64,000 nt of DNA from positions 34,286,001 to 34,350,000 of the forward strand of contig NC_047018.1 in the NCBI RefSeq assembly GCF_902652985.1, given 5' to 3'. Source of the DNA: Pecten maximus (Eukaryota). Positions 1 to 59,180 of this stretch are shown here, in pieces. Position 1 is the stretch's first letter. Every line of letters starts with the position of its first letter. The notes under the pieces are model-generated. The model did no database searches, was not told the DNA's origin, and saw only the letters and a list, made by a program, of their open reading frames with translations. The translations under genes and the position numbers were made by a program.

Positions 1-2139
1 GTGGCAGGTTTTTTGACATTAGACAATTTAGGTTTGGTCCTGTTTACAGATCTCCCCTCACAAACAAAGGAAAAAACTTTGAAGTTGTGGCCGTTACAAG
101 GATTTTCTAAGCAAGAACAACTGATGTCACGGTATTGGATTTGTCCATGACCTGTAGTCACAACCTGATGAAGTCTCATTGTACCAGGTACTGTTTTCAA
201 ACTGATCATCTTCAGTCTCACGTCAATTTCATTTATGTCCTCTTGGTGTATGATATACAGATGAACAGATGTGTTAGCTTCTTGAAGACTGGTAGCAAAG
301 GTTTTGGCATTCATAATATCTGTTCCATTGCGAACACATCGATCAGCTTCCCTTTTCAATGCACCGCCAATGCCATCTGGTATACCTTTCCCATGGCCAG
401 CTTCATGAAAGTTCCAGGTCGCAGCAGTAAAACCTAGTTCAAAAATCTCTGTGGACAAAAGGTAGAAGTTTGCTTTTTGTCGATATTGAGATGTAGGGCC
501 ATCGCTGAATATATGGACATGATCGACTGAGGGATTCTTGTCTCTGATTTCTCTTAGGACTGGTGTCATAAATGCCCAGATAGAAGCTGGATCATGTTGC
601 AGAGAATCTGAAACTCCACTGAAGGTAACCAAACTTCCATGTGTTCCAATAGTGTAATAACCTGTGTGTAAGGTTATTTGGGGCTGGGAAGCTCCAAAGT
701 GCATGCTTTGTATTTCAGTGCTCATTTTCCGACATAATTTTCGGCAAAGTCTACATGGATGAAACATTCTTGATTGGAAAGTGACTCTTTCACAGATTTG
801 TAAAACTTTAGCTGGTTGCAAATATTAAAGCTGTGTCGTCTGTAGATCAACCACATCTGGTCATGGAACTTGTCCACTAATGTACCTGCTGTTCCACTTT
901 CTTCTTCTTTAACCGTCAATGTCACACTTTTCTTTTCACCACCTTTGAGAACTCTGTCTTCTTTTACTGTTTTCCATTGTTTCCAATGTAATATTTGATT
1001 TTGGTCTTTGACCTCGGTTTGTACTTGTTTTTGGTTGCAAATGTCACATTGGCCATACATGCATATTTTTTCTTTAGTTGAGCATACCACCTCTTCAAGC
1101 AGTTCATTAAGATGATCAGACTTAATGATTTTTGACTTGTATAATGCTTCTGCCAAAAACTTTACATTTTCACACTTTTTACAGCAACACGTGTCCCTAT
1201 CTACCTCAGTTGGCGGAACAATCCAAAATGGCCGAAGGTGACAGAATGTGGAATAGCCCATCTTGGTTTTATTCTCTGCAGTGTATTTTTTGTGCAAGTT
1301 CCATATTGTGTCATTTAAGAGTCGCTTTTGATGCTTGATTTTGTGTTTTGTCAGGGTACGTTTAGCACCAGTAGTTAGGCGGGAAACATCATCTCTCTGG
1401 AAAAAGTGATGGACATGGTTAGCAAGGCGTCGAGAGCGACTTCCCTTTGATTGACATGGTTTCTTTTGCCTTCCTATACCAAGGTGTTGAGCTACAAACG
1501 TTCTCAAATGATACTTTTTCAATATGTTTCCTGACAGAACTCTCCTCAATGCTTTTCTTTCGTTCCTTTTCCTACATGCTGACTTCAGCTGCTGAACCAA
1601 CACGTTATGAAATAATAATGCTTTTCTAATCGTTTTAGTTGATCCTCGCATCTGTTTCCTAGTTTTGGAACGCGGTGTACTTGGTGTGTCTTCTGTTTTT
1701 TTATCCTTTATCCTCATCCATCTTTTCCTGTACATATCTGTTTTTCTCTCTGATGCGTTCAGTTTTGAGCTAAGTGTTGCATTATCCCTGTAACATTTAC
1801 TTTGCCTTCTTTTTATCTTCCTTTTGCTGTAAGTCTGTTGTCTTGAAGTTGTGGCCTGTGCAGGTGATGATTGCTGCTCTGGTGAGTTGGGGGTGTTATC
1901 AATGTTTCCATGTTTGTTTTTTTCTTTCTCAAACTTTTTTTGCTTTTTCTCCAGTATTTCCTCTGAGCTCGTTGTTCTCTTCTGCTCATACTACCTATCA
2001 CTTTCCGCTTCCCCAACGTCTTATCATCATCATACTTCTGTTTTGATTTTGCAAGATAAGCTTCACGTCGAATTGGATCCCTGTCTCTTTTTGCTCTGTA
2101 TCGTTTTTGCTTTTCAGCTGGTGTCAATGCCATTTTCAT
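1..2139 (-). pseudogene. Transposase with DFAENY / SDG / HGKGxxDGIGG motifs, split by two 1-nt frameshifts; 3' end outside the window
   Basis: ORFs 1813-2151 and 722-1735 plus an unlisted open frame from ~724 to 1 join into one protein: basic N-terminus, CCCKKC, DFAENY, EIQSMHF, QITLHTG, FSDGPTSQYRQK, WNFHEAGHGKGIPDGIGGALKR. Frameshifts at ~1888 and ~725. A probable 5'UTR intron spans ~2140-3057 (GTAAGT...TTTCAG). Confidence 0.8.
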
Positions 2140-3601
2140 CTGAAACAACAATTACAGTTTATAAAATTTCAACATACTAAGCTAGATTTATAAATGTAAC
2201 ATTTATCATCCGAATAGTCTATAAAGTCAATGATATGTCTATTGATACAAGTTTATGTCCATGGTGTTACCAAAAGATTGAGTTCATATGAATAATATTT
2301 CGGATAAGAGTGATGTACCACTTAAGTTGTGAGAAACATTTACAAGTTACTGTTCATGTATTTCAATAACACTGCATTTAAAGTGGCAGTTATGTCTCGG
2401 TATGTTAATTCTGTAATCATTGTCTGTTTGTGTCCATGATGTTACTTTGAAAGGTAAATCATAACATTACTCATTACATTTTGTTTTAATTGAATTTAAA
2501 GACTCGGGGAAATTTTTAAGAAACATTGTGACCAATAGCCTTTATCTCAGTAAATCAACAGATATACACTATTTATACAATAACAAGTCAACATAGCCAA
2601 TATGTCCTTGATGTTACATACTGTGTCCCTAATGTTACTATTTACCCTACACCCAAGCATTATGAAATGATTTTTACCAAACAGGAATGAATTTTCCCAA
2701 AAATTTTGATTTATTTCGATTTAGCATACACCACAAATATTTTGAAGATAATATTTATAACTAAATAGAAACATTAAATAATTACACTATATTGTCCATG
2801 ATGTCACCATTCCATGTCCCTCCTGTTACTTTTTCAGAGGTAACACCAGGGACAGTAACAGCAGGGACAAATTCTTATCAATACTACAATTTCAAAAAAA
2901 TGGTGGATCCCTTTCTGTGATGATCAAATGGATAGATTAATGCATTCATATTGCAGCAATGTACAATGAGTATTTTAAAAAATCTGGCAGATCATTTATT
3001 CAGAAAATTAGTAACATCATGGACTGACTAAAAAGTTATGAAGTAGTGAGTACTTACCTAGGTTGTGTTAGCAGGGAAGCCAGAGACACATCTCAAAAGC
3101 ACATGGCGGGATCTACTTAACAGGAAGTATAATTAACAGGAAGTGAATCTTTTTATGCTGGGGGATCATTCATTAATTATTTTTGACCATGTAACTACAT
3201 TGGTAACATCAGGGACATGATATAGTGGACAGTCAAAATATTTTATTTTTCAGTTTTTTTTTAGTTTCTTTTTTTTTCTTCTGTTCTGTAATTATTTTGA
3301 GGAACTATGTATCTCCAAAATCCCATAAAGTTTTAAAATATATTTTATTAAGAATATGTCATATTACTACGGTGAAAAATGAAATGATGTCGACGGACAC
3401 CGACTTTCTAACAAATGCAACATTTCAACCTTATGAAAAGTATATCTTTTATCAAAATAAATTTCAAAAGTAAATGTTTTTACTTACATTGGTATCTAAT
3501 TAAACTTCTAATGAACACTTAGGTCATCTAGCATGCTTATTATTTTAAGGCTGCATACAAAAGTAGCTAGGACAGCAATTGTCCATTTTTTTAGAATGAC
3601 C
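1..3601 (-). mobile_element. Autonomous-type DNA transposon, Sola-like (tentatively Sola2), truncated by the window start
   Basis: Carries a transposase on the - strand and about 10 copies of a 15-bp subterminal motif (TGTCCMTGATGTTAC, both orientations, 2256-3217). The end is placed at ~3601, where sequence switches abruptly into the right half of the MITE seen intact at 5089-5542. Confidence 0.7.
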
Positions 3602-3803: not shown

Positions 3804-5088
3804 TATATGATAGGCCCTGAAATACATGTTTTTTATTTGACAAATCCACATTTTTTGGCCGATTCTCTTAAAATTTGACATGCTTGTTGACAGTTATATT
3901 TGTGATTAGTTAGTAAAGCTATTTTTCAAATTTAAAATGAATTTAACTTCAAATTAGATTTTAAAATGATTTTTTATGTTATTTTTTTAGAATTTTTTAA
4001 TTATTTTTGTATTGTTTTATATTTAAATATTTGACATGGTCATGTATTCTATAGGGACTGATTGTTAGATTTGAAAATTTAAAACATATTTATTTTAATT
4101 TTTTTAATTGATTTGAGGGTATTAGCTATTTATCCAGAGACACAACATTCCCGACCACCGCCACGGGGAGGCTCCCTCTTTAGGTAGTCATATATATTTG
4201 TATATGTAACTTTTTTGTTGTTGTTACGCATTTGTTTTTGAATTTTGAATTCAATGTCTTATTTTCAGGTTTCCCACTGTATCTTAAACAGTTTGTTTTG
4301 GCTTTTCAACATTGATGATCCTGAAGCTGATTGTCTCCCCTGCATTTGCTGGATCTAGCTGTCCTCTCCTGTAGTTAGACTTCAGAGCAGACTTGGACCT
4401 CTCGCATGATCTTTGTGCTGTTCTACTAGTAGCGATAGAGTTCTCTTTTTCATTTTAGGTTTATACTTTGCTGTATAGTTCTTCTGAGCTCAGTTGAACC
4501 AGCTTATGCTTCACTTCCCTCCACCCCTCTTCTCTGCCTATGGCTGGACAGCGTAACAGTAATTGTAAACAAGTGCTGGCTAGTGTGTCTATTGGTGGTA
4601 ACTCACTGTGGTTGGTCACTGCAAGTCTTCATTGTTGCATTTAGATTATTTCATGTCCTTATGAGACCTGATTAATGCTTTGAAACAGTTATGATATCCG
4701 TCTGATAACAAAATTAAAATATTTTAAAGCAAAATTTTAAATTCTTTAAAAATTAAAGTTAAAATTTGAAATTGGGAGCAAACTATATATAGTTATATGC
4801 CGGGAATATCAAAGTTTCTAAACCAGTTTACAGAATTGAAATATCTCAATTATTCAAAAAAACTGTTTCATTTTATCTATCACGTGATATCAGAAATATA
4901 CATAGTAGCTGTATGTAGAATTGTGTCTTGATTTTCAGTGTCAATAGGGTGTTTTTAGATCTCTGTAATTCCTGTTTTATGTGTCATAGAGTAATTCTGT
5001 TTTCACAGCATGATTTCAAATAGCTCAAAGTTTATGAAAATAATTATTTTAAGTTTTTGACAAAAATAGTGTCCTATAATATATATAT

Positions 5089-5542
5089 GGACTAAGACCA
5101 CAATTAAGTACTTCCGGGTTCAGGCCCCACGAATGAAGTCCCCTCAAAAATGTATGTATTTCAGGAAAACCAATCAAATGCCTCTTTGAACTTGATTTCT
5201 GTTGATGAATTTAATGTGGATTTATAGCAGAGATGTCAATCTATGTTTTGTGATGTAAAATAATAATATTGATCATTTATTATGTGCTCCAGGACCCTGT
5301 GTGATGAGTCTTGATTTGACCTCTACCCCTGACCCGGATGTATATAATCCACGTTGGTGACACATTTTGACAGCTATCTCCAGAAAATGCCCAACATGCT
5401 GGGTTGAAACTTTTATATTTTGCTTCTCAGATGTTGGTCTTGGCCAGGTGAGATGGAAAGTTGCATATGAGATGTTGGGAATTTATTATGAATTTTAATG
5501 TTACAATGAAACATATAGCGAAGCTAATTGTGGTCTTAGTCC
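5089..5542. mobile_element. Non-autonomous DNA transposon (MITE), ~450 bp
   Basis: 18-bp TIRs GGACTAAGACCACAATTA / TAATTGTGGTCTTAGTCC in (TA)n flanks. Confidence 0.75.
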
Positions 5543-6195
5543 ATATATCCAAAAAATGAAGTCACGTTGAATCTCGGATAATCTCGCGATTGACCTACGT
5601 GACCTTTCCAGCCCTATTTAATGTTAGTGTGATCTGAATGTATAGCTATAACTTACTTAATTTTGAAATTGATGATATCAAATCATCAATTTCAAAATTA
5701 TAACACTTTTTTTTTAATCTGCAGCATCTGTCAGGGGAAAATGTAGTTCGAATGCCCAACTGGATGAACTGTACATGTAGCAGCATTGAAACATATCTTA
5801 GTTAGCAAAGATGCAAGAGGTTGTGGCTCTAAAAGCTAGAATTAGAGGCAATGTTTGTTTAGTGCAAGATCTCGACCACATTTCATTTATTTTATCCTAT
5901 TGGGTTTATTTGGTATGGCAACGTTATGACCAATCAGCTAATAAAAACAGAATGATGTCTAAAAACTACGTTAGATATAGGTCGGTTCTTATTTCTATTC
6001 AATTTTTCTGTACACTATATTTTCGTGAATTCATTAACAATCTTGATTTGAGATATGAAATGTGCATTTCCAAAAAAAAAGACTTTTTTTTAAAATGAAA
6101 TTCATGTGTATCAGGTGTTTTAATCTAGATTAAAATGTCAAATCATAAAATAATACAAATTAAAGTGTTGATATCCCATTTAATTAGGCATTTAT

Positions 6196-7119
6196 CCAGA
6201 GACATATATACAGAGATTGGCAGCTCTCTATTTGCCCTTGTGTTTACATAGTGGCCCCTGACCTTCCCACAATCCTTTGCGGTCGCTCGGTTCAGTCTTC
6301 ACCAGACGCCATATTGGAGAAAACTTGAAAACCAGACACATAATTATCGATAATTTCTATTTGAAATCATCACCGAGATCCATTTATGTGCTTTAATTTT
6401 ATTAATATCAAAGTGCAGAAGTGTCAACAATATGAAATATATCACAATTTGTTGTCCAAGTGTTTGTATTTTGAGTATGAAAGTCAAGCACAACGCAGGA
6501 AAGATCGGCGGGAATCTCCAATTTTCGAAAAGTCCCTGGGGTTTTCGAGAATACGGATAAATGACAACAATGTGCATGATAATCAAGACCACATTCCATA
6601 AGTATGATAGTTTTTGGTTAATGTGGTAACTTTTGTAGTGGCCTAAATAAAACGATGTGCTTTTTGTGTGCATTTAAAATTGACGATGTTTTGGTCTGAC
6701 GTAATGGCGGCTTAATTACAAACTTGGACATGTCGAATAGGACCCAATGGATTTTCGAAAATACGGATTAATGACAACAATATGCATGATCAATAAGACT
6801 ATATCCTATAAGTTTGATAGTTTTTGGTTAATGTGGTAACATTTGTAGTGGCCAAAATAAAACGATGTGCTTTCTGTGTGTATTTAAAATGACGATGTTT
6901 TGGTCTGACGTAATGGCGGATTAACCAGAACATGTCGAATAAGTTCCAATACTACGATACACACATGCGCAAAGCCCGATTTACCTGCGCTCGCGTGTGT
7001 TTGATAGGAGACGGGACGCTCTCGATAAGGGATATTCTTGAGTGGTCACGAATAAAGGGAGCCACTACGTGTACGGGGAAATAGCGATGTTACTAATCTC
7101 TCTGTATATATGTCTCTGG
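6196..7119. mobile_element. Non-autonomous TIR element with an internal ~200-bp direct duplication
   Basis: 21-bp perfect TIRs CCAGAGACATATATACAGAGA / TCTCTGTATATATGTCTCTGG. Segment ~6540-6735 is repeated at ~6750-6940. No TSD is evident. Confidence 0.7.
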
Positions 7120-7407
7120 CTCTATACATTATTTATCTCTAGTTATTGACACGAGTAATATGAGTCATAAGTGATGCTTTGACCTTAATCCAATTACATC
7201 TTTCAGATTTGTTATCTAAAACTGATACGGAGGTTGAGTCTCGTAAATAGCATTGAAATTAAACTTTGATACACACGTGCGTGTACAACGACCCGGAAGT
7301 AGGTGGTCTGAGGCCAAAGTATAATTGTGGTCTGAGGCATATAGGTATATAGGTCTCTGCTGAGGCCAACTACGCCTGAATAGAAAACATCATAATTAAT
7401 TGAAAAC

Positions 7408-8657
7408 ATGGATGGACCAACATTTTTCTACCACGCAACTTCAGCAGGAAATGAAGCTCTGATAAAACAAACAAATATCCTGATGCCACATCGATACAAT
7501 CCACCCGAAGACTGGATGATGATGGTTAGTAATGAACAGCGCCATCTGGTACCTAATGGGGTGTGGTTCTGTGCCACGCTCTATGATGGGGATCTGCCAA
7601 CGATTTCTCCGCTTGGTACTAGACGGGTGAGGATTGATATAGCAAACGTCATAAAGCAACTTGGAGGAAATGTGAAACTGTATGCAAGAGTAACTAATCA
7701 AAAAGTTGGAGACAACTTCTATACCAGGTTGATGCTCGTGAAAGAAGGAGAAAATTTTGAAATTTTGAATCACATGTCTCAGCTGGATATTGCCGAAAAT
7801 CAGTGGTTAACACTGACTGGTGAATACAGAGTTGCGCGTAGACCAATCTGGGTGTATATCTACATCCCGTACCAGATCGATGTCAGTAACTGTGACTGGG
7901 ATGAGGTGAGGTATGTATATACAACATATTAGAGGTGACAGAAGGCTGACAAATTATATATTTGTTTTAATGTCTTCGCTAGGTATCAAACCTCTGCATG
8001 GCTTATAATTTAGACTTCCGCTTAACCAATCAAGATAAAGAGAAGTTAATTCACTGTAGCCGAACAGTATATAATTTATTATTGCAACTGATTATATAAT
8101 TTACCAGGTTTGATTACACTAAATCTCGGGATGCTCCAATTTGAAGTGAATTGATCAGACTGCTGTCTTCACAGAATCTCGATGAGTTCTACAATTTTTA
8201 ACAGCTTGAAAAAACAGAAATCATGTATTTGTCTGTGGTCCCAAGATTAACGATTAAAATGAATGTCTTCACTATATGCCAATGTGATTTAAGTGATAGT
8301 TATATTGTATTATTATAATCTATATCTGAATCTCATATTCTGGTTATGTAAAGGTGTTCAATATAGCTATTCATGCACATATACTGGTATAAATAACAAT
8401 TTCTTTGTTACAGATACGTGCCAAGGGTTGTTCATCCCAGAGGCGAGGATGAGACCACAGGCGAGGATCAGACCACAGGCAAGGATCAGACCACAGGCAA
8501 GGATCAGACCACAGGCGAGGATCAGACCACAGGCAAGGATCAGACCACAGGCGAGGATCAGACCACAGGCGAGGATCAGACCACAGGCAAGGATCAGACC
8601 ACAGGCGAGGATCAGACCACAGGCGAGGATCAGACCACAGGCGAGGATGAGACCTGA
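7408..8657 (+). CDS. PHYHIP C-terminal-like domain protein (possible ADP-ribosyltransferase fold) with an acidic GEDQTT-repeat tail; exons 7408-7910 and 8414-8657
   Basis: The 174-aa ORF contains GVWFCAT..GDLPTISPLGTRRVRI, YTRLML and LDIAENQWLT, resembling PHYHIP-C motifs as I recall them (GxFFSC..GQPPQDSPYGRxRF, LDIACNKFLT). Donor AG|GTATGT at 7910 and acceptor TTCTTTGTTACAG| at 8413 are phase-compatible and join to ORF 8418-8657. Confidence 0.65.
8440..8654 (+). repeat. 18-bp tandem repeat, ~12 copies, probably coding
   Basis: (GGC RAG GAT CAG ACC ACA)n encodes G-E/K-D-Q-T-T. Confidence 0.95.
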
Positions 8658-9800
8658 CCTACACAAATACACAATTTGTCATCGCCATTATATTATGGTA
8701 TGAAGGAACAGCATCAGTCTTCTATATTTGCCTATTCATCCAGAATCAACATATTTGTTAAAAAGTTTTAAAATACTTTGAATGAGCAGCAAAAGGTCTA
8801 GTTATAGATATATATATATATAATTAGGCCTGCAGCATTCTGGTATGAAAATCTAACATGTTTATTCAAATGATTGACCTTGACTAATGATTAACTTTCA
8901 ATGTCACTTGGGTCTTGCCAACATATTTATATTATAGATATATATATATATATATATACATGTATATGATGTTTATGATTATATCTATTTGCTTAATTAT
9001 ACTTAATCTATATGTACAACAGTTAAAGTATGTAGACTTATTATCATCTGTGGAATCTACATCAAATATTTTATCTATCTATACAGACCTACACCTAATA
9101 CTTTCTTAATATACATTTATATATTATATTCACATTTAATTTATTTTGTTATATTTCATGACAAGTGTGTGATTTAAAAAAAAAAAAATTTCAATGAATG
9201 ATTTTTTTTCTGTAAAGGAGCAGAAAGAAGTTAATGAAGTTAATAGTGTGGAATGGAAGTTTTAAAATATTGCCAAATGATCTAAATATAATCATGCTTT
9301 CAGTTTTTTGCTAAATGCTGTGATAATCAAAGTGTACATGATAAGATGTAAAATACAATATATTTATTGCAATATCATTGTCTATTGTAACATTTCAGAA
9401 CCCAATCCTTTAAACCTAAGTTATCTGAGGATATGTTGTTAATTTTTTTATGTGTTTTAGAAGGTATGTTTACCTGAATTACTTGATGTACTGTTAATGA
9501 ATATTATAAACAAAAATTATACAAATTTATACACAATCATTATTGAGTTATTTGTAGTGAATTAATTTAACAGTTGTAAGGATGACATACATGTATATTC
9601 TAGTTATACTGTATTTACCGATGTCTTGATGACATATTGTGGCCTAATTCTTTGTTCAGTTGAATGTTTTTATTAACGCAAAGCATGTTTCATGGTATTG
9701 ATGTAAAAGTTCTTTCAGAAACTAGACAAATAACATTTAGGCTTCAGCTGCTAGAATGTGAAAATAAAGATAAAGAACATACCACATATTCCTCAATAAC

Positions 9801-11092
9801 TACCAGTTGATAGACTCATCTATAGCTGTAACCAGTTTATAGACTGACATCTATAGCTGTAACCAGTTGATAGACTCATCTATAGCTGTAACCAGTTTAT
9901 AGACTGACATCTATAGCTGTAACCAGTTTATAGACTGACATCTATAGCTGTAACCAATTTATAGACTGACATCTATAGCTGTAACCAGTTTATAGACTGA
10001 CATCTATAGCTGTAACCAGTTGATAGACTCATCTATAGCTGTAACCAGTTTATAGACTGACATCTATAGCTGTAACCAGTTGATAGACTCATCTATAGCT
10101 GTAACCAATTTATAGACTGACATCTATAGCTGTAACCAGTTGATAGACTCATCTATAGCTGTAACCAGTTTATAGACTCATCTATAGCTGTAACCAGCTT
10201 ATGGACTGACATCTATAGCTGTAACCAATTTATAGACTGATATCTATAGCTGTAACCAGTTTATAGACTGATATCTATAGCTGTAACCAGTTTATAGACT
10301 CATCTATAGCTGTAACCAGTTTATAGACTCATCTATAGCTGTAACCAGTTTATAGACTGACATCTATAGCTGTAACCAGTTTATAGACTGACATCTATAG
10401 CTGTAACCAGTTTATATAGACTGACATCTATAGCTGTAACCAGTTTATAGACTGACATTTATGGCTGTAACCAGTTGATAGACTGACATCTATAGCTGTA
10501 ACCAGTTTATAGACTGACATCTATAGCTGTAACCAGTTTATAGACTGACATCTATAGCTGTAACCAGTTTATAGACTGACATCTATAGATGTAACCAGTT
10601 TATAGACTGACATCTATAGCTGTTACCAGTTTATAGACTGACATCTATAGCTGTAACCAGTTTATAGACTGACATCTATAGCTGTAACCAGTTTATAGAC
10701 TGACATCTATAGCTGTGACCGATTTATAGGCTGACATCTATAGCTGTAACCAGTTTATAGACTGACATCTATAGCTATAACCAGTTTATAGACTGACATC
10801 TATAGCTGTAACCAGTTTATAGACTGACATCTATAGCTGTTACCAGTTTATAGACTGACATCTATAGCTGTAACCAGTTTATAGACTGACATCTATAGCT
10901 GTTACCAGTTTATAGACTGACATCTATAGCTGTTACCAGTTTATAGACTGACATCTATAGCTGTAACCAGTCTATAGACTGATATCTATAGCTGTTACCA
11001 GTTTATAGACTGACATCTATAGCTGTAACCAGTTTATATAGACTGACATCTATAGCTGTGACCAGTCTATAGACTGATATCTAAAGCTATAA
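9801..11092. repeat. 30-31 bp minisatellite, ~42 copies
   Basis: Unit TATAGCTGTAACCAGTTTATAGACTGACATC, with a 30-bp variant. Confidence 0.97.
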
Positions 11093-11464
11093 TCATTTAA
11101 AAATGATATCCAGACGACAAATTTTTGTTGATTTCTTGTGCAATATTTATTTTTGTGATAATTTGTTGTCTCTTCTATTTTGGACATTTTTACCACAGCA
11201 TGAATCAAAACTGTTTTATCAGTAAAATTAATTCCTTTGTTGTAATTTAATTCTTTTGTTTTATTTTAATTCTTTTGTTGTATTTTAATTCATTCGTTGT
11301 ATTTTGTCTACACAATTTGTAATTTATTCTATACACAATAAAAACTAGCATATTCATGCATGTGTTTGGTGTGTCATTCACCCCAGGCCTAATTAGAACC
11401 ATGTAATATACTCCTGCTTTTTTAAATCTCTACTAGTCCTGATCGCTTGAATGGATTTCACACG

Positions 11465-11960
11465 AATTGTCATAGCGGGTTGTCTGTGTAAATGTTGATC
11501 CCACACACGAGTTGTCATTTGGGATCGTTTGTGAAAATGTTGATCCCACACACGAGTTCTCATTTGTGATTGTCTGTCTAAATGTTGATGCCACAGACGA
11601 GTTCTCATTTAGGATTGTTTTCGTAAATGTTGATCCCAAAGACGAGTTATTTTGGATTGTCAGTGTAGATGTTGATCCTACACAGGAGTTATCATTTTGG
11701 ATTGTCTGTCTAAATGTTTATCCCACAGACGAGTTATCATTTGGGATTGTCTGCGTAAATGTTGATGCCACAGACGAGTTATTATTTGGGATTGTCTGCG
11801 TAAATGTTGATGCCACAGACGAGTTGTTATTTGGGGTTGTTTGTGTAAATGTTGATCACACAGACGAGTTATCATTTGGGACAGTCTACTCATTAATGTT
11901 GACCCCAGACAAGTTAGCTTTAAGGATTGTATGTCTGAATGTTGACCCCTCAGATGAGTT
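11465..11960. repeat. 45-bp degenerate tandem repeat, ~11 copies
   Basis: Unit ~AATGTTGATCCCACAGACGAGTTATCATTTGGGATTGTCTGTGTA. Confidence 0.9.
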
Positions 11961-13441
11961 TTATTATCCTTTGAGCAAAGCCTTGCTCTTTATGTAAAAA
12001 AATAATCTACCTCATCTCATACCATCAGGCATATTTTATAATTTTGAGGGAAAATATACATCTACTTTATAAAATACTCGCACAAAAAACGCCCAGATAT
12101 TTTTTATCATTTTATCTGGGGAAAGGGGTAATTTTTTAACACACAAATAATCCATTTTGTGCAAGGAAAGAAAGCTTTATGGTAAATAATATGATGAAAA
12201 AGTCACAAATATGTGATACAAGAAATGAGATTTTTACCATTTACACTCGGTGAATCACAATGTGCAGTATATTAACATCCATTGCCTCACTATTACCACA
12301 GACGTCTGCTTCGGGTTAGCATATCAGAAAAATAGCCCCACCCCTACTAGACTAACCAGAATCAGACACCTGTCTTATTACACAATTAATATACAGGTGT
12401 TGTACAAAAAAATGCTTTGACTCGAAGACCTATCGTATAGATTGTTATTTACTTCTCTATCCCTAGGGTTTTGACTGTTCTGAAGACAACATCAAAATCA
12501 GAAATTAACACTTTTTTTCCGTACACATATTGCTATGCCTTTTGTTTAGTACCTTTATTAGGTAGATAAATTATTTCAATGAACATATAGCATCTTGACT
12601 AAGCTTTCTTCGAAACTTTAACTACTTTGCAGAAATACCACAAAATTAAGAATTATTTGAGTAATACCATTATACAATCTTCATATTCATCATCATCGAT
12701 ACCAGGGGTTCTTCCTACAGAACTCTGTTGGAAAGAACACATAGTTCAAAATAAGGTACAATGTAGCATTACATTTAAATTCATAAACATAGCATCGCAC
12801 ATTATTTATTACTATTGACGATACACTTTCCCATCACACTTCTCTCCCATACACACAAGGTGTCACATAATTTCTGTAAAACAGATTGTAATAAATAAAA
12901 CGAACATCTTATCAATATTATGATAAATGTAATTAAAACAAAGGAACGTACTGGACGAAAATCAAAGTAAAGTGAATGTCCAAATGGATAACTGATACAT
13001 ATAAATGACACGGAATTGCAAGGAATCTCTTATAGGGACTTTACAGATTTGAAGAAGCGGCCCCCATTTCTGCAATATTCCACAAATATCACTGTACTCT
13101 AGCTTAAATCTACCTTTGACAAGCGACTCAAGAATACCTTATCCGCAAGTTTTCTGGATACAGCCGTGTGAGAGCAAGACTCAGAGGATCAACATTAAAA
13201 GTACTCATACCCTTATGCGATTGACAATGCAGGTATGAATACTTTTCACATGTTCTTCCTTTATAAAGGCTCCTATACCTGGTAGCAACCCAACTAATTG
13301 AGTCCAAATCTTCATCAACTTACACATATAGACCATAACAACTACCAAGCAATTAACTCGCTAAAGATTGTGTATTGGTATAAACATTTTTGGCATACTC
13401 CAAAGAATTTTTTTTTTTTTTTTATCAGTTTATCCATTTTT

Positions 13442-14468: not shown

Positions 14469-15933
14469 GATCAATCCTGTCGAGGGCTCAGCTTCTGTGT
14501 TGGTCATATCAACTCTTGCCACGTCAACATTGACATAAGTACTGGATCATCAATAATAAGAAGCCATATATTCATCAAGGATGACTTGGTCTAAAATTAC
14601 ATACTTTTAAACAGTTATATATAAATGACAGCGTATTGAAAATATAGCAAACGTACAACATTCGCCTTTACAGAAAAAATAGGCAATCTTTAGTAAAGGA
14701 TATAATGGGCAGTTCATCATATGGAAATGCTGCACATCCAGCTTCACTTGGGACACCAAATAAGTTAGAAATTTGAACCTCTGTCTGCTTGACCGAGGGT
14801 CGCATATACATTAACGGGATATTTGTTGACAAAATTGTTTAGCATGTGTCTCGCAAATTAGCCATATTTTGACTCTCTACAGACTAATGAACGGTGAACA
14901 ACTGTATCCTCATAAAAACCACTGTAACGTGCACATAAAGGCTCACAATCTGGAGGAATTATTTACATTTTAGCAACAGATTTGCACGCCCTGTTAAAAC
15001 TGAAGTACTGTTTTGAAAAGGACAAGACGACAGACGGCGTCATAGAATGATGTAGAGTTCGGAATCTAATAAAATAAAACTATGCACACGAGATTGTCGG
15101 TCAGTTGATTCTTTACATAATAAAACATATTTTACCAAAATTTTCCATTTGAAATAAGATGGAAATTTATCTAAATTAAGAAAATCATCTTGAGAACTGT
15201 ACTTGTGGAGAATATCCCAACCATCAGTAATAAATCCCAGTTTACATTTGTACACACCAAGGCGCTTTTGATGCAAGCGCAATAGAAATAATTGTTTAGA
15301 CTTGCATTGTAAGACTAATTGGTGCTGTAAACGCAACATTTATAATGTTGTACTGGGCAACTAGGTTCAATCACAACCTTGGCATATATATCAGCTTTAG
15401 TTTCATAAATACGACATTTTTTAGGATTCAATCCGACAGCTACATGTAGGTAGATTTAAGCTGAATATTGCGTATTATAGAATGAACTTACTTATCCTTA
15501 CCTATAAATGCATTCATGGTTAATGTGTTTAGATGGTTCAGCATGACTAAACATCAGGTAGTAAGTGTTAAGTTTACTTGCATGTATGTCTTGTATACCT
15601 TGTATTGATATATAATTCACCTAGTTTGTCTACATGAAACACCAAAACATTCGGGCTGTGCTAACGGGCACAAAATAATTTCGTGTATTTTATTAAATTT
15701 TATATTTGATGATAATGTTATTCCTTAATTAACGAAAGCTAAACTACATGGACATATTATTTAAGTATACAATTGACACGCGTGATTGACGATGATCTGG
15801 TGTCGGGTGCATTCTTGTGTAACCGATTAAGTTTGTACATATATTCACGCATTCAATTTTAAACGTATAGGGTTCAGGTGGATTCACAAGAGAAGGATTA
15901 TAGACGAAAAACAAGAAGACTTAACTTTTAGAA

Positions 15934-17344
15934 ATGATTACAGTATTCAATGTTTTGGTGATAATGTACTCGAGTATATCGGGAGTCCAAACTTCTACGA
16001 GACTTGATACACAAGTCTTACATGACAAACTTTTACAAACATACAACAAAGATCTCGGACCTAATTTCAACCAATCGCAACCAATTCTTCTTCAACTGTC
16101 GTTCAATTTGTTCACTCTCAACGAATTCGATGATATAGCCGGAAAACTTGTGTTCCTTGGACTTTCAAACATTGAATGGCGGGACGACAGGATGGTCTGG
16201 AATCCCCTTGAACATGGAAACACAACTACAGTGATGATGCCACAGTCTAAGGTATGGATCCCACATCTGTTCGTTGCAAAACCACATACTAATGTGAAAA
16301 AGATTGGGTATGATTTCGTACAAGTAACATACACTTCTGACGGATGGGCACGTTGGGCTGTCCCAGACTTGTTTGATATTTCATGCACAGCAGATATAGC
16401 TTACTTCCCTATGGACCGACAAAAATGTGAGATATACATCAGTCCCTGGTCATACGAGGAAAGTACATTTGATTTCAGACTTCCACTTAATACTATGACA
16501 CAAACTGATTTCGTCGAAAATGGTGCTTGGAAGATTCTCTCAACCGAACTGTATGTAGCCCAACATATAGATAATGAATATGTCGTTATGGTGATAAACT
16601 TTCAAAGACGTCCCCTTTTCATAATACTGAATCTTCTCCTGCCAATACTAGTAGTTGAAGTGTTGAACGTGTTTGTTTTCCTTCTTCCTCCCGATCCGGG
16701 AGAGAGGAGTGCGTTTGGAGTAACTGTGCTGCTCTCCATGGCAGTGTTTCTTTCTATTGTGTCCGACAAATTGCCCAGCACATCAGACCCACACATTGCC
16801 CGTGTTTCAATATACATTGCTGCTGAACTGACACTTAGTGCGTTGATTATGTTATTTGCAATGATAAGCCTTTTACTGTACAACAAGCCAGACGATCAAC
16901 CTATCCCGGGGTGGATCAGACGACTTGTGTCAAAACGTTCCAAACAGCAGAAACACAAACAACGAGACCCACGCGTACATAGACATATGGACAACCCTGA
17001 AGTTGATGTTCGCAGAGGTGTAAAACGAAGTAACCAGGGAAATGGCCGTTACAAACATGGAATAGACTCAATTGAAATATACAGAGGATATCACGTTGAA
17101 CAATTAAGACTCGGAGAACACCAATGCAGTTATACCCAGGACTATAGAGACCCTCCATACACCAGTTCTGAAGATCTGTGTGAAGGGTCAACGGATGTAG
17201 AGGATACACCAATCGTAACATGGAATGATGTTGCTAAAGTGGTTCGACAAATTCTGTTTGGCTTTATTTTCATTCTTAAATATAGTTATCATTGCAGCGA
17301 AAGGAATAGACACTCTTAGTTATTTGAATAATGTGACAATGTAA
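15934..17344 (+). CDS. Intronless nicotinic acetylcholine receptor-like (Cys-loop) subunit, non-alpha, copy 1; TM4 frameshifted in this assembly
   Basis: Signal peptide, WxDxRMxW, VWIP, Cys-loop CTADIAYFPMDRQKC, ENGAW, TM1-TM3 with GERSAFGVTVLLS. The ORF stops at 17319, but removing an extra A at ~17237 and at ~17280 restores WNDVAKWFDKFCLALFFILNIVII ending at TAA 17344, matching copy 2. Confidence 0.93.
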
Positions 17345-17943: not shown

Positions 17944-19281
17944 TCCGTCGTTGACTATCAAGACGAATTGTCACTTGGCCATGTCAATTTCACCAATTTA
18001 ATTCGTCACATCGTGCAGGTAATTGAAGGCTACTTCGGAAACTAAAGGCTACTTGGGACGAAATTACTTCAGACATTGTTAGGATTAACTATTTCGGACA
18101 TCGAAAATTCACTTCAAAAATTCTGAAAGTAGTAATTGAATTGGTCAATACAAAAGGTCATCGGAACGTGACCCTAATGGATGATGTCTGATCCTCTTTG
18201 TAATTGAGTGCGAATAAGGATCAGCAATTTAATCAGATTGCACTTAAGTACAAATACATAGAATCATTAGTTGGTTTGATATCACATGTTCTATCCAAAA
18301 ATCTGACTCTATCTTAATACAAAAAGTGATCATTTAATCAATGGATATCTACATCAATATAAGGAATGTAGCAAATGTAGAATTACCGTTTCTGAAAACC
18401 ATGTTTGCGAAGTTGGCATCGCATTCAATTTCCCCACTGAGTAAACGGTAATAATTTACCCTGCCGCAAAGGGAAACTATGAAGGTAAACAAAGTTAATG
18501 TTACGTTGTAAACTCTATTATTGAGTTTAACTAAACACTAACAACATAATATTCTTTTCTCGATCCTCAACTTTTGAGGGATTGTACATTAGACACACAA
18601 AGATAACCACCAGATACAGTAGGAACCAAGAATAACTGAAACTGCGCAAACATTATTTCGTATGACTTGTCAATGGTAACTGAGTTTTGAGTGATGATTA
18701 AAGCTATATATGGTAGTAATAAATAATTCAATTACCACCAATTTATTTCACAAAACACACGTGATTTCTAAATTTATACACCGCCACATACAATTCATAA
18801 CATACATGTAGTAACAGTACCATAAGCAAGACCGTAAGACCGATAAAAATATCCATCACTTCAAAGCTAAGATAGATGGGTTGCTATAAATAAATAATGA
18901 AAAATTTACTGTGACTGTTTCTATATTACCTAATACGTACATACACCATATGAGAATCATGTCATGGATACATGTGAATTCAAAAATAAAATTTTGTAAA
19001 ACTTTGTTTTCTCAGTAATATATAGGAAATATAAAATTGGAAGGATTTTAACGGCCTGTGTGGTTCATAAATCGATTGAATAGAAAACTTTGCGTTATAT
19101 TTACGATATACATAGACGGTGTTAAGTCATGTGCAACGAAGCGTAAAGCCTGCTTTATAAATACGTATGCTATACAACAGTGTCAATTTTACTGAGATTG
19201 ATGTATATTAAGCTGTTCCGTCACTCAGAAGGCTTTTCCCTGAGTTCTCATTCTATCGATCAGCAATTCAAGATTTAAGAT

Positions 19282-20682
19282 ATGTTTGGAGTTTATAATA
19301 TTTTACTGGTGACAGCGTGTGTTTGTTTAAATGGGGTCCAAAGCACAACAAGAGACGATGTACAAAAGTTAAACGACAAAATTTTGAATGAGTACAAAAA
19401 AGATCTCGGACCGAATTTCAACCAGTCTCAACCTATTGTCCTTTATATACAGTTTAATTTGTTTACACTCAACGAGTTTGACGATAAAGCCGGAAAGCTG
19501 GCATTTCTGGGATATTCCAGCATTGAATGGCGGGACGACAGGATGGTCTGGAATCCTCTTGAACATGGAAACACAACTACCGTGATGATTCCACAGTCTA
19601 AGGTATGGATCCCACATCTGTTCGTTGCGAAACCATATACTGATGTGAAAAAGATTGGGTATGATTTCGTACAAGTAACATACACTTCTGACGGATGGGC
19701 ACGTTGGACCGTCCCAGACTTATTTCAGGTTTCATGCACAGCAGACATAGCTTACTACCCTATGGACCGACAAAAATGTGAAATATACATCATTCCGTGG
19801 GCATACGGCAAAGGTACATTTGATTTCAGACTTCCACTCGATACTATGACACAAAATGATTTCGTCGAAAATGGTGCGTGGAAGATTCTCTCAACCGAAA
19901 TGCATGTATCGGAACACAGTGATGGCGATTTGGTCATAATGGTGATAAAATTTCAAAGACGTCCTCTTTTCATTATACTGAATCTTATCTTGCCAATAGT
20001 AGTAGTTGCTGGGCTCAATATTTTTGTTTTCCTTCTTCCTCCGGATCCGGGAGAGAGGAGTGCGTTTGGAGTAACTGTGCTGCTTGCCATGGCGGTGTTT
20101 CTTTCTATTGTGTCAGACAAACTGCCAAGTACGTCCGAACCTCACATTGCTCGCGTGTCTGTGTTCATCCTCTCTGAACTCATTGTCAGTGCCCTCATCA
20201 TGGTCTTCACTGTGTTTACGCTGATATTGTACAATAATAAGGATGATAAACCGATCCCTGATTGGATGAAACGTTTTGTCTTGAGGTGTTCGAGAAGAAA
20301 GACAACTGTGAAGAAAGGGGCAAGGAATGATGATGATGTCATTGAACCAAATAGAACTGATCCGAGATACTGGCGTTCCGAAAACGACCGGTATCATCGT
20401 GATAACACGGTATATGGTAAAAACAGAGGGTATCCTAATGAAAATACTGACCGAAGACACCATGAACCTTTACAACAAAAGGCTAACCAGAGCAATAGTC
20501 GACATACGGCTCCAGAAGGCCCGGTAGAATTGGCAGCAGACGACACAAATACGACTGTTACATGGAACGATGTAGCCAAGTGTTTCGACAACGCTTGTCT
20601 GTTGTTGTTTATATTCCTCAACGTTTGTATTGTTGTTATTGAAATCATAGACTCTGCGTATTATTGGAATACTGACTTTTGA
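19282..20682 (+). CDS. Intronless nicotinic acetylcholine receptor-like (Cys-loop) subunit, non-alpha, copy 2, intact 466 aa
   Basis: Signal peptide, Cys-loop CTADIAYYPMDRQKC, four TM segments, GERS before M2, WNDVAKCFD before M4, no vicinal CC in loop C. Confidence 0.96.
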   Translation: MFGVYNILLVTACVCLNGVQSTTRDDVQKLNDKILNEYKKDLGPNFNQSQPIVLYIQFNLFTLNEFDDKAGKLAFLGYSSIEWRDDRMVWNPLEHGNTTTVMIPQSKVWIPHLFVAKPYTDVKKIGYDFVQVTYTSDGWARWTVPDLFQVSCTADIAYYPMDRQKCEIYIIPWAYGKGTFDFRLPLDTMTQNDFVENGAWKILSTEMHVSEHSDGDLVIMVIKFQRRPLFIILNLILPIVVVAGLNIFVFLLPPDPGERSAFGVTVLLAMAVFLSIVSDKLPSTSEPHIARVSVFILSELIVSALIMVFTVFTLILYNNKDDKPIPDWMKRFVLRCSRRKTTVKKGARNDDDVIEPNRTDPRYWRSENDRYHRDNTVYGKNRGYPNENTDRRHHEPLQQKANQSNSRHTAPEGPVELAADDTNTTVTWNDVAKCFDNACLLLFIFLNVCIVVIEIIDSAYYWNTDF

Positions 20683-25287: not shown

Positions 25288-28200
25288 ATGGCTTGTCTAC
25301 GAGCAGAAGACTGTAAGTTTCTTAAAAACAGTTGTATAAGAAAACGTTGGTGCTCCTCATTATTTTTCCGACAGACAATTCATTTGTTATTCTAATCTGC
25401 TAACTGAAACAAAACCACTAAATGTTGTGTAATATAACTTCACTGCTCTAGCCTGAACCACCAAAGTCTTGGGACTGTTGGACTAACAAAGGGTACTGTA
25501 GCCTATACTCCTATAACATAAGAGGCCGCTGGTCGGCTCTTTTTCTATCGGATATTATTTTGCCGACTGTTACACGGCGCCTGTCAAAAGTATCTCGCCG
25601 TGTAAAACCTCTAACATTGTTGGAGTACTGTAGCCTACTGTACTGTAGTAAATCAGGATCAGCTGATCATGACCACTCGGGCACTAGTAATACAACTGGT
25701 ATAAAAGGAAAGATGAGTCAGTGCCCAATGCTGATGTGGTAAAGTAGCTAATGGGCCAATAGCCTAAGCACAATTATGGCTTAATTTTTTATAAGCCTCT
25801 GTTAGTGAAATGACAGCTGAATGTTGTATATATTCCCTCTAAATATGCAGTTTGACATGTGATTTATTTTGTTTTTGTTCATTTCATTGGGATTGATTAA
25901 TGCCAAAAGATGTCTTGTGAAATTTTTTTTTCTTGAAATTCATTTCATAATAATTTTGCCTCTTCTATGTGATGGACGTGGTTTCTTTCTTGTAACTTAA
26001 GAATTTTACTTCTTCCCAAAAACAATGGGACATTGTATACTGAAACGAAAAAGAAACGCAACTTCAAATTGTAGGTTTAATAAAATAATACTTGTGAGCA
26101 TTATGTTTAAATTTCATATGTAATAGTTAATATTGAATATTGATGTAACATCCTTTAAATGTTTAGAGATTTTTAAGAACAGGTCACTTTGCTAGAAGGT
26201 CATGATTGGTAGTACCCTACGTGAATCCAAGTTGAAATGGCAGCAGTTTTGAAACCGTGCCCTAATATCGTGTGTGTCCTCCTCGAACAGTTATCACATC
26301 TCTAATTCTTTGTTGCATTGAGTTCATCAGGGCATTGACTTTCCGTATTGGAATGTTATTCCATTCTTGGACGAGTGCATTTGCTAACTGAGGGAGGGTA
26401 TTTGGGGGGTTACGGCGATTTCGAATTCTTCTGTCTAATTCATCCCACAAATGCTCGATTGGGGACAGGTCGGGGCTATATGGAGGCCAATCTATAGGAA
26501 CAATGTTCTGTGTCGCAAGAAAGTCTCTACAGACTCTTGCAACGTGTGGTCTCGCGTTATCTTGCTGAAAGGTTAGATGATGCTGCCTAACAAACGGCAC
26601 AACATGGGGCCTAAGGATCTCATCCCGATAGCGTACGGCCGTTAAATTCCCATTGACTATCACCAAAGGCGTCTTCAAACCATGGGAGATTCCCGCCCAA
26701 ACCATAACTGATCCACCCCCAAATCGGTCGTGTTCCAAAACACAGGCGTCAGCAAAACGTTCGCCTCGACGCCGGTACACACGTTGACGGCCATCTGCTC
26801 GAAATAACGTGAATCGAGATTCATCGGTGAAGAGCATAGACCTCCAACGTCTCATAGGAAAACGTCTGGGCATATGTGCCGTTGCCCATTGCATACGACG
26901 TGCTCGACGTTGCGGTGTTAGTGGTAAACCAACGTACTGTCGCCTTGCACGCAAATTAGCCTCACGCAGTCTGTTGATCACTGTTTGGGGATGAATTCGA
27001 CGGTTATGATTACCAATCGTATTCCTTGCCGTTTCAGCGGCCGTTAATCTCCTGTTACGCAGGTGTGCCAACCTAAGAACCCGGTCTTGACGTCGCGACG
27101 TTACGCGTGGACGTCCTGATCTCGGCTGGTCATCGACTCTTCCTGTTGCGTTAAGACGTGAAACTAATCGACTAATAGTCGATTTGTGAACTCTGAATTG
27201 TCGAGCGACGTGAAGTTGCGTGTTCCCTGCCAGAAGCATCGCTATAGCACGTCCTCTATCAACCTTTGATAACCGTGGCATAATTGTAAAAGGAATTATT
27301 GTTTGCAAAAGTATTGGCGATGATGTGGCTCAATGTTAGTGATGAATTGATACTGGTTTGAATGAAAAAAGAACGCATATGTTTGTACAGGCACGGTTTT
27401 TGATGTTTTTACCGCGCCGGAAGTGCATAGGTCTCTAGTCACACTTGGGTGATTTTGAAGATTGGTATGGGTGTTAGGCAGGGTGCATGTTTATTTCCGC
27501 GATTTTTATACAGATATGTATATTTAATACAAAATTAATCACAATTTTCCATGTTGCGTTTCTTTTTCGTTTCAGTATATATATAAGTTTTTGGAAATTC
27601 CTAAGTGATGTCTGACTTGAGAAACAATGTGGAATGTTATAATGTCAATCTTGTGCAAGAAGAGTGGAAAAATGCACAGCCAGACCGGGGTTCGAACACT
27701 AGCCGGATGTTCTAGCTATGTACCAACTGAGCTTCCCGGGTCGCCAATGATTGACCTTCTTCAGTCCTACTATAATCTTCCCTCCCTTTTAAAGTCTTCG
27801 ACCCTGCAGAAGACCTAACAGCTCACTACCCAGGTTCGGTTATCATCTTGCCAAATATTCACCTCACTTCAAACAAGGTGTAACAGGAGAGGATAAAATG
27901 TAGCGGCCAGACTGGGCTTCGAACCCGGGACTCTGAATACTAGCCGGATGCTCTACCAATTGAGCTACCTGGTCACTGATGATCGACCCAGTCCAGTCCT
28001 GCTACACACCTCCCTCCTTTTTTCCAAGTCTTCGCCCTCGAAGACACACAAGACCCTTATACCTCCACCGTGGGTATTTTAGTTGGGCGCCAATTTTGTA
28101 ACAGGAGAGGAGAAAATGTAGTGGCCAGACCGAGGTTCGAACCCGGGACCCCCGAACATTTGAGCAACCTGGTCACCGATGATCGACCCAGTGAGTCCAG

Positions 28201-48440: not shown

Positions 48441-50938
48441 TTAAATAACTTAGGATATGAACTTTGGATTTGGATATTCATGTACCACACACTTTCAACA
48501 CACCTTTTTATAAAGCTGTTGTATTTAATATCTAGGGTAGGATGGGTCCTCATACAATGGTATTGATACCCATTAAAGAATATTTTCCATGTAATAATTA
48601 AAACTCTCATAAGGCAAAATGAAAAAAAACAAAAAAAACTATAATTTTACATCTCACGATATAGTTTTACAACAGTTTCTGATCATGATTATACAGTCCA
48701 ACAGTTAGCGTGTCTAATAATCTAAAATCACAATGTTATGTATATAAAAACAGATTCACATGTGATAGCAAACCCTTCATTGATACCTTGTGGGGGCAGT
48801 AACAAGTCATATAGGTTTGAATAAGTTCTGTACACATACGTATTGTACACATACATACTGTTCACATAGTTACTGTAGGTACATTTATAGGTTTGGGTCA
48901 CACAGCATATCGTCAATAACATGTTGGAATGCTTAGAAGTTACTCCAGAAATATAAATATACTAACATAACACATGTATTCCTCAGTGATATGTTCTAAA
49001 TGAAAACCCTTCATCTGTACTTTTTGGAATTGAAGTACCAATTCATAAGGATTTAAACCATGAATATACAATTCACAACAATTTAAATATCTCTCCATCT
49101 GTTGATCTTAACAATATGTAATGAAGCAATAATTTAAATACAACACCATTTATCGATCTTAACAATATGTAGAGACATAACAAAGCAGAAGCATTATTTT
49201 ATGGCTGCAATAAAAATATAAAGATGAATCAAAAACTGAATTCATATATATTGATAAATGTAGAAGTCTAGTGGGTTATAAAGTAAAGTGTATTTCATAG
49301 TATCGGTACACACAAGATAAAATTATAAAATATATATATATAGTATGTAGATATTAAAAGGGACTCTAACAAAGAGACAAGGTTATTGAGCAGGATCTAC
49401 AGTATCTCGGAATATCTTAATCACAGACACAAGCTTCATGTAAAGTTATACTACAGAATATTCTATGCTTGTCTGTGGTATTATTCGTAGAGTTGTATAT
49501 TGAAGTAGATATGTAGTATAAAACATTTTTGTATATTAAAGTAGATATGTAGCATAAACATTTTTTGTATATTGAAGTAGATAATATGTAGTGTAAAATA
49601 TTTTTGTTATGCTGTAACAATACTAATACTTCCATTCTAAATAATTTTACAAAGAAATTTGATTAAAAAATTCCATATTATTTTTAAAAGATATAAATAC
49701 AATAATCTAATCATGCAGGACTCAGAGATAGACATATACAAACTTTGATAGTATTGGTATTGAAATAAATAAAAATACCATTATAATTGAGCATATATTT
49801 TTAAAAGTAGTTCTTAATTACACATAAAATATAAACCATCTATCAGTTAGTAGTTCTACGTTAGAAGACTATCTGTTGCCTTACAGCAATGAAGGTTCAC
49901 TGTGTACAGAATATATGCTGACATTACTGAAAAAGTGCTACATGCATATATACTAATTAATTGAATCTAAAAGGGGAACATTAATCACAACAAAATAGGG
50001 ACTGGTTTCCTTGTCTTGTCTACCAGTTTCACCTGAACATTGGCCTTGAAGGACAATGGAACCCACCTTTCGCCACTAATCATCTGGCATTGGCTCTGCC
50101 CGAGGACTTTATAGACTAATCAAATAAATGGTACAATTTGAATGACAGACCCTGTTTAAATATGATACAGGTGTACCCTAGTTTCAACAAAATTTCTTAC
50201 ATTATGAAAATTCTTTCATAGCTTAAAATTTTCTGTAGGAAACATTCCTGCAGAATTTAAGGGAAAATTCTATAACATGTTCCTATGAGAACATTTAAGA
50301 TAAGGAACATCCATAAAACTTGGGAAACATGGAACAACTCAACAAAGAGTTAAAATCACAGAAATTTTACTTCATGTGAAAACATGTGGAATTCATTAAA
50401 ATAAGGAATTTATGAAAACTCACTATCAGATTTATAGAATCTGGAAACACATTTGAATCATATCTAGTAAACTTCAAGCCTCTTTTAATTTTGCAGTTGT
50501 ATAACTATAATTCCTAACATGAATGTATTACACTGTTGTACAATAAACAACACTAGCTATACAATAAATATCAAACTAATATGTTCATTTCTAAAATAAA
50601 TCTGTCATTGAATAAATATGTTAACAAATAAATAACCAGAGAAAAAAAAACAATATAGAATATCAAATAAGAATAATCATGTTACCCATTGTTCTGGAAT
50701 GTCATTGGGAAAAAAAAGTAAGATTCATATTTTGATTTTATTTGATATTATCTACCGGGTAAAAGTTTTGTTTATATTTTTGTAATAAGTGTGTCTTTGT
50801 AAAAAGAAAGACAGCAAACTCAGTTAAAAATTCCATAAAGCTAGCCTTTCCATCAAAAGTAAGTTTGTTACTGAATTCACTTAAAGTTCACAGTTAAAAT
50901 GACAAATTATAAATCACCCATATTGAAATATTAAAAAT

Positions 50939-58800: not shown

Positions 58801-58903
58801 TGATGACATATTCTAAACCCCGATAGTTGATCCATCCAATCAACGATATTAATGCCGAGATACCGATGAAAGCAGCGCTTTCCAACGAAAATTCAATATC
58901 CAT
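52896..58903 (-). CDS. DHCR24: Delta(24)-sterol reductase, 8 exons, ~524 aa
   Basis: Exons 58652-58903, 56774-57035, 56295-56413, 55100-55366, 54544-54684, 54232-54429, 53552-53730, 52896-53052; phase-consistent (1575 nt). Motifs: [99 protein letters not shown]. Confidence 0.97.
55790..56032. mobile_element. MITE in a DHCR24 intron
   Basis: TIRs CCTGGAATATGTTATGGTAAAATCAAA / TTTGATTTTTCCATGACATATTCCAGG. Confidence 0.65.
57932..58312 (+). repeat. Two degenerate 5S-rRNA-related SINE-like fragments
   Basis: AAGTTAAGCA...CACTTGGATGRGTGAC resembles the 5S A and C boxes; each is preceded by TTTTGTGGCTGTGCRGTT (~57932 and ~58232). Confidence 0.45.
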
Positions 58904-59180
58904 GGCCCAGCTTCCAGAACGAAACACCTGTCAACCCGCTCATCTACTTGCTGTTTAAAGGTCAACAAGGGTCAAGGCTACAAGGTCGCGTCGTTGGCAA
59001 CTTCCTGCATTTCGGAACTCATCGGGTATTTACTATACCTTTTCGATACTTGAATTGTTCCGAAATACCGCGGGAACACCCCGCTATTTTCCCGCCACAC
59101 AAACACATGTACCCTTGTTTTGACTGATGCGTTGCAGTCCGACGGACATCTTACATTTGTTTGATCTCCGAATCTGAACA
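58904..59180. promoter_or_regulatory. Probable bidirectional promoter shared by DHCR24 and UHRF1
   Basis: Only 277 bp separate the divergent ATGs. The interval is CpG-rich, with E2F-like TTTTCCCGCC (~59087) and GCGGGAA (~59070), and AAGGTCA-like half-sites (58958-58988). Confidence 0.7.

Follow-up and report, generated by a model that had tools for sequence, protein, structure and literature searches.

We describe a gene in a 64,000-nucleotide stretch of the Pecten maximus genome (contig NC_047018.1, positions 34,286,001 to 34,350,000 of the forward strand; hereafter the window), whose open reading frame (ORF) runs on the plus strand from an ATG at 7408 to a TAG ending at 7932 and codes for 174 aa. 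This gene, here called the window copy, is probably a transcribed, duplicated scallop gene encoding a stand-alone domain of the PHYHIP_C family with a predicted ADP-ribosyltransferase (ART) fold. Because its pocket His is kept while two conserved pocket residues differ, the product is probably an NAD+-binding enzyme of weakened or re-tuned activity. The ORF is more than a chance opening, since it has at least 14 matching places in its own genome, 12 database proteins match it and RNA contigs cover it. A first-pass annotation, made from the letters alone, had read the motifs FYHATS, IKQTNILMP and GVWFCAT in this frame, and the translation contains all three.

Assignment to PHYHIP_C (PF19281) comes through relatives. 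A Pfam scan of the 174-aa protein returned no family at an expect value (E) of 1 or less, and its PHYHIP_C score lay below the gathering cut-off. Among 16 aligned family members, 10 gave PHYHIP_C at E ≤ 1, two of them above the cut-off of 27 bits (P0010, 41% identical to the query, at 33.6 bits, and P0013 at 27.6 bits). HHalign joined the family profile to four full PHYHIP_C copies of the same genome, located on C11, at 92.3% (E 5.5e-7, 143 columns). A HMMER profile search of 1.84 billion representatives gave 215 clusters at E ≤ 0.001; 148 of the best 150 were new and were scanned, yielding PHYHIP_C in 101 and fn3 in three. The proposed identity as a divergent PHYHIP_C relative without FN3 is therefore borne out by relatives and profiles, although the query alone has no Pfam match. 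Sequence searches of the PDB, single and profile, reached only unrelated proteins (best E 0.55 and 0.43), and PHROGs, PADLOC and NCBIfam gave scattered matches at E ≥ 0.02.

The C-terminal domain of PHYHIP and PHYHIPL is homologous to the window copy across about 160 residues, with its motifs in the same order: FY-[RH], G-x-[FW]-F-[SC], P-x-x-S-x-[FY]-G-x-x-R, N-x-[FW]-L and V-E. A chordate PHYHIP cluster ranks first in the Atlas structure search of P0010, with a template-modelling score (TM) of 0.55. Unlike these proteins, the window copy has no FN3 domain, N-terminal helix or C-terminal Cys-rich tail, and the domain ends near residue 167. It has F-Y-H-x-T where canonical PHYHIP has F-Y-R-N, and G-V-W-F-C in place of G-x-F-F-S, that is, His-x-Thr for Arg-x-Lys and Cys for Ser. 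Canonical PHYHIP_C was represented in our residue and model comparisons by the C11 copies. These are four genes (C11 41.537-41.623 Mb, L015-L018), each carrying the entire PHYHIP_C domain within a single exon, with an R-S-E triad. Upstream of at least two of them lies an FN3-like exon, seen by eye and not called by Pfam, and one of the genes with such an exon follows a frame of 1,276 aa or more that is rich in Ser and Thr (L028).

Relatives span four scallop genera, and the database protein P0003, labelled Pecten maximus, is 100% identical to a locus of this genome. Of 20 relatives looked up, six are from scallops, one is a His-type protein of the amoebozoan Planoprotostelium, one is from the nematode Pristionchus and one is a EukProt entry; 11 are nameless. 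At position 9, the best 150 of the 215 clusters have His in 77, Arg in nine and Asn in one, with 63 not covering the position. This makes the His-type branch a large one that, judged by sequence, extends beyond molluscs, because the Planoprotostelium member belongs to it; the invertebrate family first proposed was drawn too narrowly. A slowly evolving His-type lineage (H-S-Y-E) comprises P0011, P0012 and the Pecten locus L012 (C10, 8.768 Mb), with very short branches across scallops. Good support is limited to five of the 17 inner branches in the family tree, where the placing of the window copy with P0005 is poorly settled. Longer fused forms were absent from 7,993 scored candidates of 386-2000 aa, which is weak evidence, and the HMMER search does give proteins of up to 684 aa. 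Other layouts occur in P0028, P0021 and P0106, namely a CCHC zinc-knuckle fusion in Mizuhopecten and tandem double domains; the zinc-knuckle fusion hints at nucleic-acid binding in that relative.

The predicted model of the window protein has the ART beta-sheet core, with Tpt1 and DarT as its nearest structures. ARTs make up 48 of the 50 structure matches listed for this model and all 50 of those listed for the PHYHIP_C model. The ART-type fold that had been proposed from motifs alone is very likely correct as a prediction, and the register in which we read the triad only a little less so. It is improbable, in our estimate, that the whole family is non-catalytic and that its ART likeness is a reused or chance arrangement of beta-strands serving protein or RNA binding: match lists so nearly pure argue otherwise, as does the strongest conservation, which lies at the triad positions, where a His/Arg exchange is known between ARTs of the H-Y-E and R-S-E clades.

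Among the closest known systems is the NAD-binding lobe of Tpt1/KptA (PDB 8tg4, 9ld6, 7yw2), with which only about half of the model aligns, at 14-16% identity. The window copy differs in having no N-terminal RNA-binding lobe (matches begin at chain residue 88-91) and no second His, and its family has a strand-5 Glu, whereas Tpt1 is an H-H-h enzyme without a catalytic Glu. PTS_2-RNA gave no Pfam match in the window protein or its aligned relatives. Compared with DarT (PDB 7omv, 7yk3, 8baq), the window copy is eukaryotic, with no antitoxin partner seen and no notable PADLOC or NCBIfam match. The catalytic domains of PARP/ARTD proteins (PARP1, PARP16 and the pseudo-PARP TASOR) are also among the closest known systems. 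Two bacterial families, DUF2971 and DUF7002, are Atlas structural neighbours of P0010 at TM 0.52 each, a comparison of predicted models on both sides in which the aligned-part scores fall below the Atlas bar and no sequence-level link was found. PMC12522546 presents DUF2971 as an ART-like family near to DarT.

The residues of the NAD+ pocket were read from this register. DSSP assigns a strand to residues 6-11, and residue 5 of the model is in register with PARP1 858 and diphtheria toxin 17. H9 therefore falls, in the predicted model, where the first-pass annotation had expected an NAD-binding His, at the position of PARP1 H862 and of diphtheria toxin H21. At the positions that hold His, Cys or Ser, Tyr and Glu in the stand-alone family, the four C11 copies show Arg, Ser, Phe and Glu; their triad columns read Arg-Ser-Glu, with R32 in register with PARP1 862. 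R-S-E and His-type versions thus occur within one domain, as judged from aligned residues. In the window copy H9, T11, W53, C55 and R107 are retained. It has the strand-1 His of the H-Y-[EDQ] (ARTD) class. W53, on the predicted strand 51-55, may serve as the strand-2 aromatic; the family Tyr that is likely the stacking residue is replaced by Leu69, and the strand-5 acidic residue by Tyr150. Its His-Cys-Tyr does not match the R-S-E (ARTC) triad either. Leu at position 69 is found in one of 149 wider relatives. Position 150 is looser, with Glu in 93 of 128 wider relatives and other residues in 35; Tyr150 is also present in the Ylistrum protein P0005.

For intact members we think it reasonably probable that the whole mechanism runs as follows. 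NAD+ would be held by the strand-1 H-x-T, the strand-2 aromatic and the tyrosine of S-P-Y-G, the strand-5 Glu would stabilise the oxocarbenium ion, and a single ADP-ribose would be transferred, in the cytosol. A nucleic-acid or phosphate acceptor is tentatively and slightly favoured, because the nearest folds are those of Tpt1/KptA, which act on RNA phosphates, and of DarT, which acts on DNA. With His, Trp, Leu and Tyr in these places, the window copy has a somewhat better than even chance of binding NAD+ or ADP-ribose with transfer reduced or changed. Such a change is likely but not certain, because PARPs without the Glu are still able to transfer one ADP-ribose. Could the window copy instead be a fully active, Glu-independent mono-ADP-ribosyltransferase with a changed target, like PARP16 or Tpt1, its fast change being adaptive? 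Retention of H9, T11, W53 and R107 would suit this, as would the intact and transcribed frame, the Tyr at 150 shared with P0005, the alignment of this position with residue 254 of PARP16 (presumably Tyr) and the Glu-less state of Tpt1. We nevertheless hold full activity unlikely: the window copy is the sole member of 16 with a non-aromatic residue at 69, a Leu that is so rare among wider relatives, and the ratio of nonsynonymous to synonymous substitution rates (dN/dS) given below does not exceed 1.

Transcription of the window copy, on which the first-pass annotation had staked its reading, is seen in RNA contigs. Contigs from four of 24 listed runs were compared with positions 3900-8425. Four cross the start of the ORF: X2 (7295-7910) and X4 (7286-7910), recorded as RNA from two samples of one study, and X1 (7277-7487) and X5 (7384-7584), guessed to be RNA, from two other studies. 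An in-frame TAA at 7393-7395 lies upstream of the ATG with no AG between them, so an upstream exon cannot extend the ORF. A spliced-on FN3 exon was rejected on these grounds, and nothing resembling the upstream exons of the C11 genes was seen; with contigs unbroken over the start, the absence of FN3 holds for the gene as well as for the frame. Strand 1 opens the protein, with no signal peptide evident by eye.

The 3′ end of the gene is another matter. X2 and X4 both break off at 7910, their 68 further letters matching nowhere on 3900-8425, and the GTATGT that follows directly is also the donor in the C10 paralogues. Those have a TAA stop 2-5 nt ahead of the donor, in 6 nt that are missing from the window copy. 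Because the contigs leave the genome at this donor, the intron likely contains the TAG at 7930-7932; the spliced message probably reads through the exon joint and would use that TAG only if the intron is kept. The claim of a single-exon domain stands for the domain (aa 1-167), but a gene of two or more exons is likely, and the 174-aa product probably has the wrong C terminus. With the candidate acceptors at 8414, 9660 and 11199 the protein would be 248, 168 and 184 aa long, respectively. The latter two sit in blocks conserved with C10, and a conserved AATAAA follows 11199. No RNA cover was found over 7977-8425 in the four runs, which is uninformative for the candidate exon at 8414, only 12 bases of which lie in the compared stretch. 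Features are listed in Table 1.

Five of the matching places are full-length open frames: the window copy, L002, L003, L004 and L012. The others are frameshifted, stop-ridden or 3′ halves. Identity to the window copy is 69-71% for L002 and L003, which lie in a tandem array of about 4 kb on C10, 45% for L004 on C851 and about 30% for L012, also on C10. Similarity to C10 sets in at the ATG and extends through the intron and the 3′ blocks to about 11.35 kb. As intron and 3′ blocks are common to both, comparison of the sequences indicates that the window copy arose by DNA duplication rather than by retroposition or carriage on an element. The suggestion that the gene is element-borne was accordingly dropped: no relative was confirmed among 17 candidates in viral DNA or 65 in metagenome DNA. 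An uncharacterised Bacillus phage protein, the best match in a viral structure library (E 0.0096, TM 0.39), is kept as a lead only. Atlas feature matches to unnamed phage and bacterial clusters (0.95-0.97) are not read as signs of gene transfer. Carriage by the inverted-repeat element at 6197-7118 was also rejected, since it stops about 170 nt short of the transcribed leader and does not recur next to the paralogues. The DNA at 7119-7318 is unrelated to that upstream of the paralogues; 7119-7203 recurs about 330 kb off on C4 (93%), and 7254-7318 resembles short dispersed repeats. On sequence comparison, the 5′ end of the window copy may be a new acquisition. Neither the window protein nor its 70%-identical C10 copies turned up in the protein collection, so these genes are probably unannotated.

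Selection was estimated from dN/dS. C10 copies against L004 gave 0.17-0.19, and the window copy against L004 gave 0.25 (0.13-0.45), with synonymous sites near saturation; to the outgroup they are saturated. Against its close paralogues the window copy gave 0.79 (95% bootstrap 0.49-1.34, L002) and 0.77 (0.45-1.24, L003). The family is thus under purifying selection and the window copy relaxed or adapting; the purifying selection looked for is clear in the former and weak in the latter. The frame has been kept: gaps in the coding part add up to multiples of three, whereas of the 15 gaps across 420 aligned non-coding bases, 12 have other lengths. That no stop has arisen is by itself weak evidence (P 0.09-0.15 under neutrality). 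We consider it quite unlikely that the window copy, though transcribed, is a duplicate that has begun to decay under relaxed selection and has no function of its own. The dN/dS intervals do include 1, coding mismatch (16%) is like that of alignable non-coding blocks (9-21%), the stop codon is lost, two pocket residues are changed, many sister copies are broken and the exact protein is missing from the protein collection. Yet some 500 nt have passed without a frameshift, against about one gap per 28 nt in non-coding blocks, the RNA contigs come from two RNA runs and two guessed-RNA runs, and the model confidence is 90.7, though alignment-driven. Our preferred reading thus remains that of a weakened or re-tuned enzyme. 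A role in defence, stress or immunity is our guess, which tandem birth and death of copies would fit.

The family matters more than the window copy, because the latter has an altered pocket. PHYHIP and PHYHIPL are, to our knowledge, conserved animal proteins without known biochemical activity. Should their C-terminal domain prove to be an ART fold whose triad is intact, an NAD+ assay could test function and extend the list of animal ARTs, and finding His-type and Arg-type members in one family would inform the relationship of the H-Y-E and R-S-E clades. In molluscs the gene family is small, tandemly duplicated and partly unannotated, with the rapid turnover typical of defence genes. As a tentative possibility, PHYHIP_C may be an unrecognised eukaryotic ART family that bridges both classical clades, with an R-S-E branch of canonical PHYHIP/PHYHIPL, the human proteins included, and a large His-type stand-alone branch; human PHYHIP would then have NAD+-dependent activity, and scallops a fast-evolving defence set of enzyme and pseudo-enzyme copies. 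No link between PHYHIP and ARTs was found in the literature searched, though Pfam clans, ECOD, subscription papers or structure-classification papers may already hold the fold link. PHYHIP is not mentioned in the main text of PMC9503650 or in the main text and six supplements of PMC10041065.

Table 1. Features of the window copy and its surroundings (window positions)
Feature	Positions	Strand	Evidence or remark
High-copy non-coding element, terminal inverted repeats, putatively MITE-like (miniature inverted-repeat transposable element)	6197..7118	.	Arms 6182-6216 and 7099-7133; loose contig ends at 6197 and 7118; very high summed depth
Transcribed 5′ leader	7286..7407	+	X4 from 7286, X2 from 7295; unlike upstream DNA of C10 paralogues
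Coding exon, whole PHYHIP_C-like ART-fold domain (aa 1-167)	7408..7910	+	ORF, RNA contigs, profile, model
H9-x-T11, strand 1	7432..7440	+	His at PARP1 H862 / diphtheria toxin H21 position; Arg in canonical PHYHIP
G51-V-W53-F-C55-A-T57, strand 2	7558..7578	+	Strand 51-55 in model; G-L-F-F-S in canonical PHYHIP copies
L69, Tyr in 15 of 16 family members	7612..7614	+	Likely place of the nicotinamide-stacking aromatic, position presumed
Y150, Glu in 14 of 16 family members	7855..7857	+	Would map, ungapped, to the catalytic Glu of PARP1 and DarT
Splice donor GTATGT	7911..7916	+	Contig ends, C10 comparison
TAG of the first-pass annotation, likely intronic	7930..7932	+	Contig ends
Candidate exon 2 (putative)	8414..8657	+	18-nt tandem repeat; acidic, Thr-rich tail of 81 aa if joined, for a protein of 248 aa; single-copy in genome
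Non-coding block at same relative place in C10 units	9533..9780	+	Candidate acceptor 9659/9660; protein would end at 168 aa
Candidate terminal exon, conserved with C10 (putative)	11199..11345	+	Pyrimidine tract and CAG at 11198, AATAAA at 11337-11342; 184 aa

Elsewhere in the window, two tandem single-exon genes for Cys-loop ligand-gated ion channels of about 465 aa (Neur_chan_LBD, Neur_chan_memb) lie at 15925-17319 and 19279-20682 (+); intronless expansions of nicotinic-receptor-like genes are known in bivalves. Two overlapping frames with Cys/His clusters and no Pfam match, at 722-2151 (-), resemble what we take to be a frameshifted CACTA/EnSpm-type transposase. Minisatellite arrays at 9743-11180, 11414-11962 and 50900-52900 (31-nt, 45-nt, one strongly skewed) hold low-complexity open frames, and exons like those of delta-24 sterol reductase (DHCR24) were seen by eye at about 55000-58930 (-). 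An open frame for a Tc1/mariner-type transposase (DDE_3, HTH_Tnp_Tc3_2) occupies 26262-27329 (-). The first 160 residues are identical in a copy on C851 (L023:902-1966), which suggests that the element moved recently. Also on C851, about 5.5 kb from L004, a frame at L022:9143-9616 (-) resembles by eye a C1q globular domain; bivalves have an expanded set of immune genes with C1q domains.
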